NCBI RefSeq assembly: GCF_006345805.1
Contig: NC_042997.1
Location: forward strand, 108,934,001-108,998,000
Source of the DNA: Octopus sinensis
Taxonomy: Eukaryota
Reading direction: 5' to 3'
Length of the DNA stretch: 64,000 nt
Part shown: positions 12,460 through 59,600 of the stretch, piece after piece
Numbering within the stretch: the stretch's first letter is position 1
Layout of the letters: every line of letters starts with the position of its first letter
Notes under the pieces: generated by a model
Databases searched by the model: none
The model's input: only the letters and a program-made list of their open reading frames with translations
What the model was told of the DNA's origin: nothing
Made by a program: the position numbers and the translations under genes

Positions 12460-13672
12460 TGGTTAACACGAAAACGCAAATTAACTGCATCAATGTGATA
12501 AGTCTGTTCACCAAAGTCCCAACTGGTGAAGCACTACCGGTGATTCAAGAAAAACTAGTGACAGAGAACCATCTAAAAGAACGCAAGGAGCTAGATGGAA
12601 ATGTTGACCTTCTGCGTAGAAACTACTTACTTCAGTATGGACACTGACATATATATCGACAAAAGAGGGTTTGGCTATGGGTTCGCCATTATCACTGATA
12701 ATAGCTAATATATACATGGAATAGTTTGAGAATTTGGCTTTAGCATCAAAACCTCTAAAACCAACCCTATGGCTGCGATATGTTGCTGACACCTTCATAC
12801 TCTGGCCCCACCAGATCGTGCTGTTAGATCATGTGAACTCAATAAAGCCATCCATACAGTTCACAATGGAAAAGAAAAAGACAATCAGCTGACATTTCTG
12901 GACGTATTAATAACACGCACCAAGCTTGGATTCAGGACATCCGTATACCGCAAGCCGACCTTCACTGGAGGATACCTCAACTTCAAATCCCACCAACCAT
13001 ACAGTGTAAAAAAAATGGATTGCTCAGTGCTTAAAACATCGAGCAATGAATATACGTAGAAATCGTAGTACCCACCACGAAGAAATGACCAAGCTCAGTA
13101 ACAATCTATTAAGCAGCATCTACCCCAAAACATACTCTCCACTCAAATTATGAAGAAAAGTGAAGATAAAACCGATAAACTGTCCACAGTCTGTCTACCC
13201 CTATATGAAAAGCCTCTCCGAAAAGATACGAAAGATATGTGGCCCATATGACATCAGGACAGTATTCAAAAGTATTACAACACTTCGCAAATATCTCCTT
13301 GGAGTAAAACCACCAATAGATGAGAATATGACCAAGAACTGCGTGTACTCCATCCCATGCAGTTGTGGTAGGTTATACAAAGGCGAAACATGCCATCCCC
13401 TCAAAATAAGGGTAGAGGAACATCGCAAAGCTGTGACATGGGGAGATATTGATAAATTGGGTATAGCTGATCATGTATGGAAAAATGGAGACCACCTCCC
13501 TCTGTGGGATGAAGTTAAAATAATAGACAGAGAACACCACTGGAAAATACGAAAACTAAAAGAAGCAGCACATATGGTAGGACACAACAACCTCCTAAGC
13601 AGACCGAGTGCAGATATGAATAGCATATGGGAACCGGTAATAAGGAAGGATAAGAGAATATTAGATTTATAA
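12460..13672 (+). pseudogene. Penelope-like element (PLE) RT + GIY-YIG endonuclease, disrupted
   Basis: PLE RT motifs INVISLFTKVP, GLAMGSPLSLIIANIYME, WLRYVADTF, LTFLDVLITR and TSVYRKPTFTG occur across frameshifts. The C-terminal ORF 13160-13672 has CVYSIPCSCGRLYKGET...RVEEH...RKLKEAAH (GIY-YIG). Confidence 0.9.
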
Positions 13673-13701
13673 GCCCTAAAATTCACTTCATAATTGCCCA
13701 C

Positions 13702-13773
13702 GGACATATGGCGTAGTGCTTAAGAGCGTGGGCTACTAACCCAAGATTCCGAGTTCGATTCCAGGCAGTGACC
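13702..13773 (+). promoter_or_regulatory. tRNA-like cassette (Pol III A/B boxes) in the PLE 3' region
   Basis: A-box-like TGGCGTAGTGC (13709-13719), anticodon-like arm TGGG-CTACTAA-CCCA, B box GAGTTCGATTCC (13751-13762) and a degenerate acceptor stem GGACATA/AGTGACC. Confidence 0.7.
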
Positions 13774-13849
13774 TGATTAATAATAATAATAATAATAACA
13801 ACAACAACATCGAAAATGAATGAGAAGCTAGGTTCAAAATTTCCCTAAG

Positions 13850-13893
13850 ACACCTGATGAAGGTTGGAGAGTATAACGGCCGAAACGTTGTGT
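13850..13893 (+). ncRNA. minimal type I hammerhead ribozyme (PLE type)
   Basis: Stem I ACAC/GTGT, core CTGATGA plus an extra A, stem II GGTTG/CGGCC, GAAA, palindromic stem III AACGTT. Predicted GUU cleavage after 13889. Confidence 0.75.
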
Positions 13894-14375
13894 TAAGAAC
13901 AAACAAGATGAGCACAACTATCCACTGTAAATAATGCACTTGCACGTTATTTTCATTTTCACGAACAGGCTTTTCCGTTGACCGGATCAACTGGAACCCT
14001 GAAAGTCGTAAGCACGGATGCTGACACATAGATAGAGCGCCATTAAGCCATTCATGCATAGCGTCCAGAAAAATGGACGCCGGAAAAATTTCTATTGCTT
14101 GTTTAGTAAACTACGAATTGAGTTTATTTTTGGTATAGTCTGCCTCTAAACTAGTGCTCTGTAAGTGAGTAATTTTTCCTGTGTCCATTTTTCTGTGTGC
14201 TATACATTAAGGAGTTAATGGCATCACCTCCCCTTATGTGCCGCAGGCATTGTTATTGCTGGGTCGGGCTTAAATTATTCCGGACTGCTCATGTTCAGCT
14301 GCAGCAGCAACAGCATGAGCAAGAGCAGCAAGAGCAGCAGCAGCAAGAGCAGCAGCAACAGCCGTTCAAGAGTTT

Positions 14376-15479: not shown

Positions 15480-15520
<41 letters not shown>

Positions 15521-15648
15521 ACGTGTAATGGCAGTGTTGGTGTTGCGTTCATTGAGAAATTGCCTTAAAGTACTCCAGACTGATTTCATCATCTAATCTC
15601 GTATCATTGCTTCAATAATTATTTCGTTTAAAAGAACAGCATCTGGTG

Positions 15649-15679
<31 letters not shown>

Positions 15680-15821
15680 GTGTGTGTGTGTGTGCACGTG
15701 TAATGGCAGTGTTGGTGTTGCGTTCATTGAGAAATTGCCTTAAAGTACTCCAGACTGATTTCATCATCTAATCTCGTATCATTGCTTCAATAATTAATTT
15801 CGTTTAAAAGAACAGCATCTG

Positions 15822-17100: not shown

Positions 17101-18107
17101 ATGTACAAAAGAAGCCTTGGAACTGTCTGAATTTCAAAGAGGCCTTGTTGTGGGTCAATCTGAAGGTAGACATAGCGTAAAATCACAGAAAACCTTGGGA
17201 TTCCGCTTTCTACAGTTAACAGGGTGACTGTACAATCCACCGCAGAGGGGAAGGAGTCCACATCACCTCGCTCAGGTTGACCAAGGCTCTATGACAGGAC
17301 CCTTCTCTTTGTTAAGAGAAGTGTGGAGGATAATCCTCATTGCAAGGTCTCTGACATAGCTGAGCAAGTTGATGTCAGTCCCAGAACAGTTGTCAGGTAT
17401 CTCCACAAACTTGGTTACTATGGCAGAGCAGCAAGAAGGAAGCCACTTCTTTGACCAGCCAATATCAAGCGGAGAAAAGATTAAGCTAGTGAGATGGTGG
17501 AGTGGCCACTAGCATTTTGGGACACTGTCATTTTCTCCATTGAGTCTAGATTTGCTGTATTTTCTGAGAGCGGTCGAGTGTGGGTCTGGAGACTCTGTGA
17601 TCAAGAATTTGACGTGAAAAGATAGCAGCCAACAATGAAACATGGCAGCTATTCTGTGATGGTATGAGGATTAATTTGGAGCATTGGTCAGTCAGAGCTG
17701 GTGGAGTGTAAGGGAAACATAAACTCAGATAAATATGTGTCCATATTGCAGAAAGGACTCCTTCCAATCTTCTCCAGTTTAATCTCCAAATGATTAAAGA
17801 AGACACTTTATTTATGGCAGATAGGGCTCCTTGTCACACGGCTAAAATGACACAAGATTTGTTGGATGAGAATGGTATTAAAAAGCTTCCATGGCCAAGC
17901 CAGTCACCAGATATGAACCCTATTGAACACTTCTGGGACATAATGGACAGGACACTTCATAAAAAGAACAAGAAAGCATCTTCAAAGCTGTTACTGCATG
18001 GAACTTGGCAAGAAATTCCACAAGAGAATATTCATCATCTGATCAGTAGCATGCTTAATAGGGTCCTTGCATTCAAAACTGCAAAGGGCATGTCTACTAA
18101 ATATTAG
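17101..18107 (+). pseudogene. Tc1-like (DD34E) transposase relic
   Basis: ELSEFQRGLVVG N-terminus, RAARRKPLL, VIFSIESRF, FMADRAPCH, LPWPSQSPDMNPIEHFW and terminal GMSTKY*. Multiple stops and frameshifts. Confidence 0.88.
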
Positions 18108-30397: not shown

Positions 30398-30802
30398 CTC
30401 TCTCTCTCTCTCTTTTTTCTCTTTTTACTTGTTTCAGTCATTTTGACTGCAGTCATGCTGGAGTACCGCCTTTAATCGAGCAACTCGACCCCGGGACTTA
30501 TTCTTTGTAAGCCCAGTACTTATTCTATCGGTCTCTTTTGCCGAACCGCTAAGTGACGGGGACATAAACACACCAGCATCGGTTGTCAAGCAATGCTAGG
30601 GGAACAAACACAGATACACAAATATACACGTACATACATATATATACATATATACGACGGGCTTCTTTCAGTTTCCGTCTACCAAATCCACTCACAAGGC
30701 TTTGGTCGGCCCGAGGCTATAGTAGAAGACACTTGCCCAAGGTGCCACGCAGTGGTACTGAACCCGGAACCATGTGGTTTGTAAACAAGTTACTTACCAC
30801 AG
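30398..30802 (-). mobile_element. tRNA-derived SINE family A, near full length
   Basis: Highly similar to 3145-3567. Confidence 0.85.
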
Positions 30803-35905: not shown

Positions 35906-36070
35906 AGAGGAGCAGTTGTGGCTACGTGGTGAGAAGTTTGCTTACCAATCGCATGGTTCCGCGTTCAGTCCCACTGCGTGACAACTTGGGCAAGTGTCTT
36001 CCACTTTAACCTCGGGCCGGCCAAAGCCTTGTGAGTGGATTTGGTATAGGAAGTCTGAAAGAAGCCCGTG
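35906..36070 (+). mobile_element. SINE family A head
   Basis: GTGGCTACGTGGTGAGAAGTTTGCTTACCAATCGCATGGTTCCGCGTTCAGTCCCACTGCG...GCCAAAGCCTTGTGAGTGGATTTGG. Confidence 0.75.
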
Positions 36071-57532: not shown

Positions 57533-58220
57533 TTTATCGACTACGTTTGGCGAACCGCTATCTTATTTCATCGATCTCTTTGGCGAACTGCTAAGATATT
57601 TTATCGTTCTCCTTTGGCGAACCGCTAGATTACTTTATCTATCTAGTTTGGCGAACAGCTTACTTATTTTATCGGTCACGTTCGGCGAACCCCTAATATT
57701 TTATCGATCATTTTTGGCGAACCGCTATGTTATTTTATCGACACGTTCGGCGAACCACCGAAGATATTTTATCGATCTCCTTTGACGAACCGCTAATTAA
57801 TTTTATCGATATCCTTTGGCGAACCGCTAGGTTATTCTATCGATCTCGCTGGCGAACCGTTAGATTATCTTATCGATCTCCTTTGGTGAACCACTAGGTT
57901 ATTTTAACTATATCCTTTGGTGAACCACTAGGTTATTTTATCGAGCTCCTTTGGCAAACCCCTAAGTTATTTTCTCGAACTCTATTGTTGAACCGCTATG
58001 TTAATTTATTGATCTTTATGGGCGAAGTGCTAAATTTCTTTATCGAATTATTTTGGCGAACCTCCAGGTTATTTTATGGATAACCTTTGGCGCTAAGTTA
58101 TTTTATTGATTTCGTTTGGCGAAGGGCTAAGTTATTTTAACGTTCTCCTTTGCCGAACCGCTAAGTTATTTTATCGATCGCTTTTGGCGAAGCACTAAGT
58201 TATTTCATCGATCTCCTTTT
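57533..58220. repeat. minisatellite, ~34-bp unit, about 20 diverged copies
   Basis: Consensus about TTATTTTATCGATCTCCTTTGGCGAACCGCTAAG. GAAC recurs at 57787 and 57821, giving period 34. Confidence 0.9.
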
Positions 58221-59600
58221 AAGTTTTTACACCTTTTACCATGGTAAAGTGGAAGCGGATTAGTAATTTAAGCGCGGAAATCATGATGAGGACGAATATC
58301 CGTCAAATGTAAATAGTATAAATAATGTGCCTATTCTTTGTTTTGCGGGGTCTGTTTGAAGCGACTTGCTGGATTGCTGGTTTTGAGATCATGGCTATGG
58401 TGGATTGTTTACCACAGAAAGAAAAGTTACATTTGTAATTAAGGGAAAATAATGTAAGTTCGTTTATTGAATAATGCGGTGAAAATTGGGCGGAGAAGCT
58501 TTCAGTCCAAAATATCCGATTACTCTTCTTGCCAGAGAACACGAATATACCGGAGTCTGAGAGTGAAAAAATATCTCTCATATATTACAGGCCAAGAATG
58601 GTGAATTTTAGAGGTATTTTTGTCTCCACTTTTGTTAATTTTCCGAATTTCATTATAATGTTGTATTTTGTTGTTATCGTTGAACCAAACTCTTTCTCTG
58701 AACTATAGTATCTCTCTCCCCTCCTCTCTCTCACTGTGTTAATTACAACTGGGTTTAGGTTAATTGACAGAAATAATAATTAATATTATTGTTATTACAA
58801 ATATGCCGGTACCGAAGTTCAGAAAAGTCGAATGAATACAAATAATTTAATCAAAAAAAAATAATTATTTAATACAATCTGTATTGGTTATAAATCTGTT
58901 CATTTCGATAAACTTTATAAGTCTTTGTCAGTTGTTATTAACACATTTATCGAGAAAGCAAAGGAAATTTTTTAGATTATTTTAATCCCTCAAATGATTT
59001 GAAATCTTATCTATTCTCTCGAGTTATGAATCGTTGAAAATTACTTCTTTGTTTGTCTTTTTGTTTTCATTTTTCTGTCTTTTGTTATTTTGTCGGTTTT
59101 GTTTTCTATTTGCTGTTTCGTGCTCGAAATGTTTCGCCTCGCGTCAGGTCATATTTCATGCTTGAATGACTGCGAATAAACAATAATTCATTTCAATCAA
59201 TTTTAAAAATCATTTGTAATATTAACTTTGTCAGCTCGCGTACGGAAATCATGTTAGCATTGTCAGTATCAACCCCATTTGTATTAAGTTTTCTATTTAT
59301 CCTGAGCAAACAGACTGTGTAGTTCCAAAACTAGTCTTCAGTATGTGTGTGAAGTTTAATCAAGCTCACCTGTTTGTATTGATTTGCTAAGACAAATTAA
59401 CAATTGACTGAAAACTTTCATTGATGTGGCCAATTCTTCGCTTCATTGGTTACAAAAGTAATTTGATATGCTCTATAATGATATCTCCACCGAACTACAC
59501 GGGGAACAGATATTTAGGTTCAATAGCGCTCACCGGCTGTGCATCACAATCTATATACATACATATCTGTCTGTTTATCTATCTATCTATCTATCTATCC

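Follow-up and report, generated by a model that had tools for sequence, protein, structure and literature searches.

For the Poseidon element PAc of Anolis carolinensis, a single ORF with a reverse transcriptase (RT) plus a GIY-YIG endonuclease at the C-terminus, pseudo-LTRs, a hammerhead ribozyme overlapping the ORF start and two 3' ends past the cut that are separated by about 30 nt have been described. In this element the tail corresponds to two internal sites at which the RT starts on uncleaved RNA in vitro, and the promoter is likely to reside in the pseudo-LTR (passages of PMC11167929). The Penelope element of Drosophila virilis has its promoter in the pseudo-LTR that the upstream copy's 3' UTR forms; this promoter is internal, LINE-like and TATA-less, and the element contains a spliceosomal intron (PMC2377424, in part). 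The minimal hammerheads of metazoan Penelope-like elements (PLEs) combine a short helix I, an extra base before stem II and a palindromic helix III, and are inactive as monomers (passages of PMC4209133). Outside the PLEs, Pol III promoters derived from small RNAs lie inside the terminal repeats of the TRIMp3 elements (Cassandra, Helenus, Ajax), which are non-coding LTR elements of 0.3-1.3 kb; in the available passages of that source, transcription by Pol II is taken as the rule for coding retrotransposons and transcription by Pol III for their non-coding parasites, and autonomous partners are argued to require Pol II (PMC10886601). Short hammerhead-bearing repeats are also represented by Sm-alpha and Sj-alpha of Schistosoma and by animal non-LTR retrozymes (PMC2770079, PMC7229834, bioRxiv 10.64898/2026.07.22.740005, each in part). 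These are non-coding and carry canonical hammerheads, retrozymes forming tandem arrays; Sm-alpha contains a tRNA-like sequence (PMC2770079), and mobilisation of retrozymes by PLEs has been proposed (PMC7229834, bioRxiv 10.64898/2026.07.22.740005).

The element described here lies in a 64,000-nt stretch of Octopus sinensis DNA, referred to as the window, whose coordinates are used throughout. Positions 12493-13936 hold a single 5'-truncated, decayed Penelope/Poseidon-type element with RT and GIY-YIG regions (Table 1); this particular copy is most likely dead. Its family, in which the order is ORF end, head, (AAT)n, ATG, hammerhead, tail and next ORF, shares with PAc the ORF organization, the pseudo-LTRs, the overlap of the hammerhead with the ORF start and the pair of 3' ends. 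It differs in a tRNA-derived head, a feature that, like a Pol III promoter, goes unmentioned in the available passages on PAc (PMC11167929). A promoter position in the pseudo-LTR would be common to the octopus element and D. virilis Penelope; in contrast to the latter, the octopus element has A and B boxes and no intron was seen (PMC2377424, in part). With TRIMp3 it would share a small-RNA-derived Pol III promoter, here putative, inside a terminal repeat, but the octopus repeat belongs to a 2.9-kb coding element of non-LTR type (PMC10886601, in part). Its short copies resemble Sm-alpha and the retrozymes in bearing a hammerhead, and Sm-alpha also in the tRNA-like sequence, but they are the pseudo-LTR of the coding element itself.

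The in-frame ribozyme is already known from the anole element, whereas no published description of a tRNA-type head in the pseudo-LTR of a coding Penelope element was found; Repbase, Dfam and most subscription papers lay outside the search, so that an entry in a repeat library is possible. No tRNA-headed Penelope element appears in the passages of PMC8557442, PMC7229834 and PMC13282606 that were available, and those of the 2026 retrozyme preprint (bioRxiv 10.64898/2026.07.22.740005) mention neither tRNA, nor Pol III, nor a promoter.

Table 1. Features of the octopus Penelope-type element and of a related tail fragment, in window coordinates.
Feature	Position	Strand	Evidence
RT region, decayed, 5'-truncated, with frameshifts and stops	12493..13153	+	From 12493 on, 84-88% identical to the long copies L091-L095; similarity of family frames to Penelope-type proteins
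GIY-YIG endonuclease frame, C-terminal, 172 aa, stop TAA 13670-13672	13154..13672	+	Open reading frame and protein match P0072
AT-rich stretch resembling a TATA box, in overlap with the stop codon and 34-29 nt ahead of the head start	13666..13673	+	Sequence
Short palindrome across the ORF/head junction; fold-back junction site in some copies	13695..13706	+	10/58 head-start junctions hairpin-like
tRNA-derived head, 73 nt, +1 = G13702 (30 nt past stop); likely Pol III promoter and RNA start	13702..13774	+	Sequence, family comparison, 5'-end pile-up
A box of head	13709-13719	+	One damaging change in window copy
7-nt loop of head, ACT in anticodon position	13733-13739	+	Sequence
B box of head	13752-13762	+	Sequence
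(AAT)n/(AAC)n spacer, length varying greatly between copies	13778..13809 (about)	+	Sequence, copy comparison
ATG; opens a frame through the hammerhead into protein in copies with a downstream ORF	13820..13822	+	L315, L316, L317
Minimal type I hammerhead motif, predicted cut after 13889	13849..13894	+	Manual mapping; architecture as in PMC4209133 (in part)
Penelope tail to the shorter of two family 3' ends (putative RT start site)	13895..13936	+	3'-end clusters; PMC11167929 (in part)
Isolated tail fragment of the same Penelope family	58279..58321	+	88% over 43 nt to family majority, E 2.5e-10

The affiliation of the element is readily apparent from its organization. The single ORF places the RT before a C-terminal GIY-YIG domain, as in endonuclease-positive PLEs, and the window frame matches P0072, a carrier of PF01541, with 40% identity over 131 aa (E 3e-30); a Pfam scan of the window endonuclease and of the family N-terminal frame assigned no family. 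The best named protein match of the family is an Octopus sinensis gene model (85% identity). Pseudo-LTRs arising from partial tandems are present in L315, L331, L332, L339, L342 and L344; inverted 5'-truncated arms also occur in the family. As in Penelope/Poseidon elements, an optional tail of 30-40 nt gives two 3' ends and a minimal hammerhead motif, recognised by its sequence, lies in the pseudo-LTR. Judged by domain order, pseudo-LTRs, tail, ribozyme motif and similarity, the element can be assigned to the endonuclease-positive Penelope group. The A and B boxes with tRNA spacing at the 5' end of copies recall tRNA-derived SINEs, but the head is part of the coding element and does not define a non-autonomous lineage whose partner would lack it. 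The 92 head-started and 43 ORF-linked heads are equally diverged outside CpG (4.5 vs 4.6%) and show no diagnostic variant; consequently, the short copies form no separate SINE lineage. Fewer B-box changes were seen in the head-started copies, at 2 of 74 columns (P about 0.03), a difference set aside in view of multiple testing and alignment bias. The 93 hammerhead-anchored copies are mostly single or in inverted pairs, without the head-to-tail arrays of short units typical of non-LTR retrozymes and Sm-alpha, and their hammerhead motif is minimal, not canonical as in retrozymes. Finally, the repeat flanks an RT/GIY-YIG ORF and not, as in TRIMp3, a non-coding unit with two true LTRs.

The sequence-only reading had placed a whole tRNA-like cassette about 30 bp after the GIY-YIG stop. 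Its position is exact, and its length and promoter boxes also stand, but the fold does not: ARAGORN predicts 0 tRNAs over the window, and Rfam at E≤10 reports neither a tRNA nor a hammerhead in 13660-13960, both motifs having been identified by manual mapping and family comparison. In the per-column family majority, the acceptor stem pairs at 2/7 positions (5/7 if shifted by one) and the following stems at 3/4, 3/5 and 3/5. The head is no longer a tRNA. Although its cloverleaf has decayed, the family majority has both the A box and the B box intact, spaced as in a tRNA, and we take them to match the Pol III promoter consensus. The window copy is damaged in the conserved GG of its A box, with a C at 13719 where 349/364 first-mate-plus reads of run X21 carry G. 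An RNase P-type cut at +1 was also considered and is rated unlikely, because the acceptor and T stems of the head pair poorly.

Regarding the origin of the head, a donor search over 27 host tRNA sequences of 6 amino-acid types revealed no clear parent, the best being Arg-TCT with 50/74. The closest relative found, by a small margin, is a host SINE head (L157:672-737, 48/66), while tRNA genes reach at most 45/66 (3 compared at that length). The donor may be a SINE or a tRNA type outside the 6 sampled; the proposal that this PLE family captured a tRNA gene in its pseudo-LTR is upheld as to the family-wide location of the head and leaves the donor uncertain. Abundant tRNA-headed SINE-like families occur around the loci (L157:672-737, L247, L083, L111) and in the window at 30752-30800 and 35920-35981.

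The motifs are not a product of chance, as demonstrated by exact 34-35-mer counts in the genome: 2805 for the tail, 1551 for the hammerhead, 751 for the head and 478 just upstream of the head, with 0 for the reversed controls. Corrected for the share of exact matches among copies picked by other means, these correspond to ~33,000 tails, ~32,000 hammerheads, ~6,900 heads and ~1,800 copies of the segment 50 nt upstream of the head, estimates with small numerators that hold to an order of magnitude. With the exact 34-mer that directly precedes the head as probe, the first 30 of its 478 matches all run into the head, 21 of them with a hammerhead segment within 900 nt; the head is likewise reached in 26/29 endonuclease-picked copies, and a hammerhead/tail segment follows in 28/30 head-picked ones (first 30 of 751). 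These samples were drawn from the first part of one contig (C1), with both arms of inverted pairs counted. Contigs bridging endonuclease and head with at least 31 nt a side are present in at least 2 of 4 runs of other organisms, among the contigs listed, and contig depth, which is no copy number and is given no weight here, rises about 4-10-fold from endonuclease to head in the 4 runs. The head is carried family-wide in the pseudo-LTR and is not a stray SINE. The expected linkage of head, hammerhead and PLE ORF is confirmed, and the observation named beforehand as contrary, other copies lacking the tRNA-like segment, was not made.

The 5' ends of copies were compared in 121 insertions: the first matches on contig C1 supplied 30 anchors picked on the tail and 93 picked on the hammerhead, from which 2 duplicates were removed. 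Their ends fall in the hammerhead segment (29), in the head body (19), at -20..+14 of the head start (32) or further upstream (7); the remaining 34 end in the microsatellite or gave no head within 900 nt. The head is reached by 58 copies and never by 63. Among the 39 that get as far as its start, 32 stop within -20..+14, which corresponds to 3.92 ends per 100 nt at risk, compared with 0.81 in the head body and 0.29 upstream; the binomial P is 4e-8 and 2e-13 against either side, with copies treated as independent. The upstream rate of 0.29 is reproduced in the separate set of upstream-34-mer-picked copies, and the start of 28/30 head-picked copies lies at -20..+14. Copies that begin at the head and are as short as a SINE are common. 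By a rough pattern count, 10/58 head-start junctions are fold-back-like on the junction palindrome and 48/58 are not.

An analogous picture emerges from 30 loci containing the ORF start, the best of 354 candidates; among the 30, 4 represent a single duplicated insertion and 2 the arms of one insertion. Only 7 reach the head; 4 of these begin at it (+4, -2, -7, -14), and 3 extend into the preceding endonuclease (-62, -182, -284). It appears that the majority of template RNAs, though not every one, started at the head. Since 3/7 ORF-start loci and 7/39 of the other copies extend upstream of it, longer RNAs starting elsewhere must also have been copied. Such a pile-up reflects either the 5' end of an RNA or a stop of the RT, and it does not indicate which polymerase was at work. 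In L024, L128, L136, L157, L163 and L174, foreign sequence interrupts the (AAT)n spacer of the family, so that the number of copies seemingly stopping in the microsatellite is inflated. The insert in L024 and L163 presumably represents an R4/Dong-type LINE; Pfam gives no more than a weak zf-RVT match for that of L163.

The hammerhead and its spacer are present as the sequence-only reading had them. In the motif, stems I and II and the two core boxes can be recognised, a single additional base precedes stem II, and helix III is a palindrome of 4 nt; the motif is ordinary for the PLE group (PMC4209133, in part). Helix III has no loop, and a dimer or the help of a protein would be needed for cleavage. 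Among copies visible to the search pattern, stem II retains 5/5 pairs in 50/74, and the core is kept in most. Starting from the ATG and crossing the hammerhead into the protein, the frame shows no interruption over the 150 codons read in 3 of 9 copies examined (L315, L316, L317); the other copies show stops or frameshifts. The N-termini of P0005 and P0007, Penelope proteins of other organisms, resemble translated hammerhead cores, which suggests that the in-frame ribozyme may be widespread.

At the 3' side, the ends of 111/121 copies form two clusters, of 55 and 56 copies, at ~50-58 and ~75-90 nt beyond the predicted cut, and two clusters of loose ends ~30 nt apart recur in 4/4 contig runs of other organisms. 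Near the predicted cut itself, 1/121 copies ends, in sets anchored close to or past it; 28/30 head-picked copies run past the cut, and 3/30 tail-picked copies begin between it and the tail anchor. A T>C variant at L025:1678, in the hammerhead region, accounts for 44-50% of contig depth in X19 and X20 and for <1% in X16 and X18, hinting at a lineage-specific subfamily. A generic hammerhead pattern gave 18 matches (control 4); 9 of these (L348, L349, L352, L353, L356, L358, L359, L360, L362) have the same 12-nt spacer length with unrelated spacer sequences and no Penelope homology nearby. The second tail fragment noted near the end of the window is real (Table 1); directly upstream of it, at 57540-58220, lies a degenerate tandem array with a unit of ~40 bp and ~17 copies by eye.

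No TTTT separates the cassette from the ribozyme, as had been noted; the first, at 13950, is flanking DNA, the element ending at ~13936. The sense strand of the whole 2,921-nt family majority is devoid of TTTT, where 5.4 are expected from composition, and the window copy has none either. The corresponding P is 0.006 for a mononucleotide null (base shuffle), 0.047 for a dinucleotide null, and 0.011 and 0.061 for codon-aware nulls; G4 runs are likewise absent from the majority. Natural copies contain 27 T runs in 94,551 nt (73 alignments). As a control, 9 open frames of other retroelement-like sequences hold 14 T runs vs 15.5 expected, 3 of the 9 having none; L044, a transposase-like frame with 8 T runs vs 5.0, was excluded as not a retroelement. 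A second Penelope family for this control was not found by tblastn of 8 homologues over 1.2 Mb or by the generic hammerhead pattern. The absence of T runs lends modest support to a possible Pol III read-through of the whole element. RNA-seq data, from 3 raw runs of another organism together with 1 contig run, give no direct indication of Pol III transcription: the two strands are represented equally, with no site at which many molecules begin or end; the reads are interpreted as read-through of embedded copies. No GT..AG joint across the head is found among the RNA-seq joints listed.

Collectively, these findings are best explained if the head is the RNA start site and likely a Pol III promoter, and if the RT primes in the tail of uncut RNA, a reading that we regard as fairly probable. 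The pile-up could also be a true start created by a Pol II promoter, as in D. virilis Penelope with its internal LINE-like promoter in the pseudo-LTR (PMC2377424, in part), the tRNA-like block being then a captured 5' leader or an internal Pol II element. In its favor, translation would be easier from a capped RNA, the 5' ends of some copies lie upstream of the head, and a TATA-like stretch is present at -34..-29, although its chance origin in AT-rich DNA is plausible. This explanation is nevertheless unlikely, given that decay in the family majority has affected the cloverleaf but left the A and B boxes intact at tRNA spacing, that the start coincides with tRNA position 1, that the sense strand lacks TTTT and that the joints listed include no GT..AG joint over the head. 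Alternatively, the pile-up might be mechanical, caused by fold-back of the cDNA on the 12-nt ORF/head palindrome or by stalling of the RT, with the head as a passive relic of an old SINE insertion. The 10/58 hairpin-like junctions, the frequency of inverted pairs in the family and the resemblance of the head to another host SINE head are in line with this, but the 48/58 remaining junctions join other element parts or plain flank, many at -2..+5. Moreover, the palindrome has a stem of merely 4-5 bp, an RT halted by a tRNA fold would stop on the 3' side of that fold, which shows no pile-up, and the intact boxes and missing T runs are left unexplained; we consider a mechanical origin improbable.

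The sequence-only reading had suggested that a Pol III transcript of ~190 nt could be ended or processed by hammerhead self-cleavage, giving a module that may drive the element or spawn SINE/retrozyme hybrids. Such a 188-nt RNA as the active unit would fit the lack of T runs between the head and the predicted cut, the conservation of core and stem II (5/5 pairs in 50/74 copies visible to the search pattern) and the precedent of Sm-alpha, a SINE-like element with a hammerhead (PMC2770079, in part). The copies do not bear it out and make it very unlikely: one of 121 ends near the cut in sets anchored close to or past it, 28/30 head-picked copies run past, just 3/30 tail-picked copies start right after it, and head-to-tail arrays of short units are absent among the 93 anchored copies. 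The 188-nt product is unlikely to be the mobile RNA also because the putative RT priming sites, 50-90 nt past the cut, would be missing from it. In addition, minimal Penelope hammerheads are inactive as monomers (PMC4209133, in part), and uncleaved RNA is the RT substrate in vitro (PMC11167929, in part). An independent SINE insertion confined to this Penelope copy has nothing in its favor except that the head with its (AAT)n resembles a SINE, and its probability is negligible: the same junction occurs in 30/30 upstream-34-mer-picked and 26/29 endonuclease-picked copies, 28/30 heads are followed by the Penelope segment, and bridging contigs exist in at least 2/4 runs of other organisms, among the contigs listed. 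It is excluded by the family-wide linkage of endonuclease and head.

With the head as the RNA start and likely Pol III promoter, a mechanism can be outlined. The head would recruit Pol III, with the RNA starting near -2..+1; the element RT would prime in the tail of the uncut RNA and run off at its 5' end, producing thousands of SINE-like copies of 250-300 nt, single or often in inverted pairs. Where a pseudo-LTR precedes an ORF, in partial tandems, the same promoter would read through 2.9 kb without Pol III terminators and yield the coding RNA. The hammerhead may act later or as a switch and would not define the mobile RNA; its cut would remove the start codon. The full version, a 2.9-kb autonomous coding element transcribed end to end by Pol III from a captured tRNA-type promoter, with terminators purged from its ORF, an uncapped RNA that is translated, a SINE of its own and an in-frame hammerhead cut removing the start codon, is possible but remains tentative. 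Pol III RNAs are uncapped and normally poorly translated.

If the inference holds, the octopus element would work like Cassandra/Helenus-type elements and Sm-alpha, those being non-coding. A protein-coding retrotransposon started by Pol III would, if true, be unusual, and a Penelope family with a tRNA-type promoter in its end repeat would blur the line between Pol II-transcribed coding elements and Pol III-transcribed parasites: one element would make both its own protein and thousands of SINE-like copies. It would offer a system for testing Penelope transcription and the translatability of long uncapped Pol III RNA, and one possible route by which SINEs and retrozymes arise from Penelope ends. 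In octopus repeat libraries, the short head-started copies can be mistaken for tRNA-SINEs.

Two further features were observed downstream in the window. A direct duplication of ~180 bp lies between (GT)n tracts at 15510-15820, and a 124-aa frame at 17733-18107 (+) presumably corresponds to the C-terminal part of a Tc1/mariner transposase.
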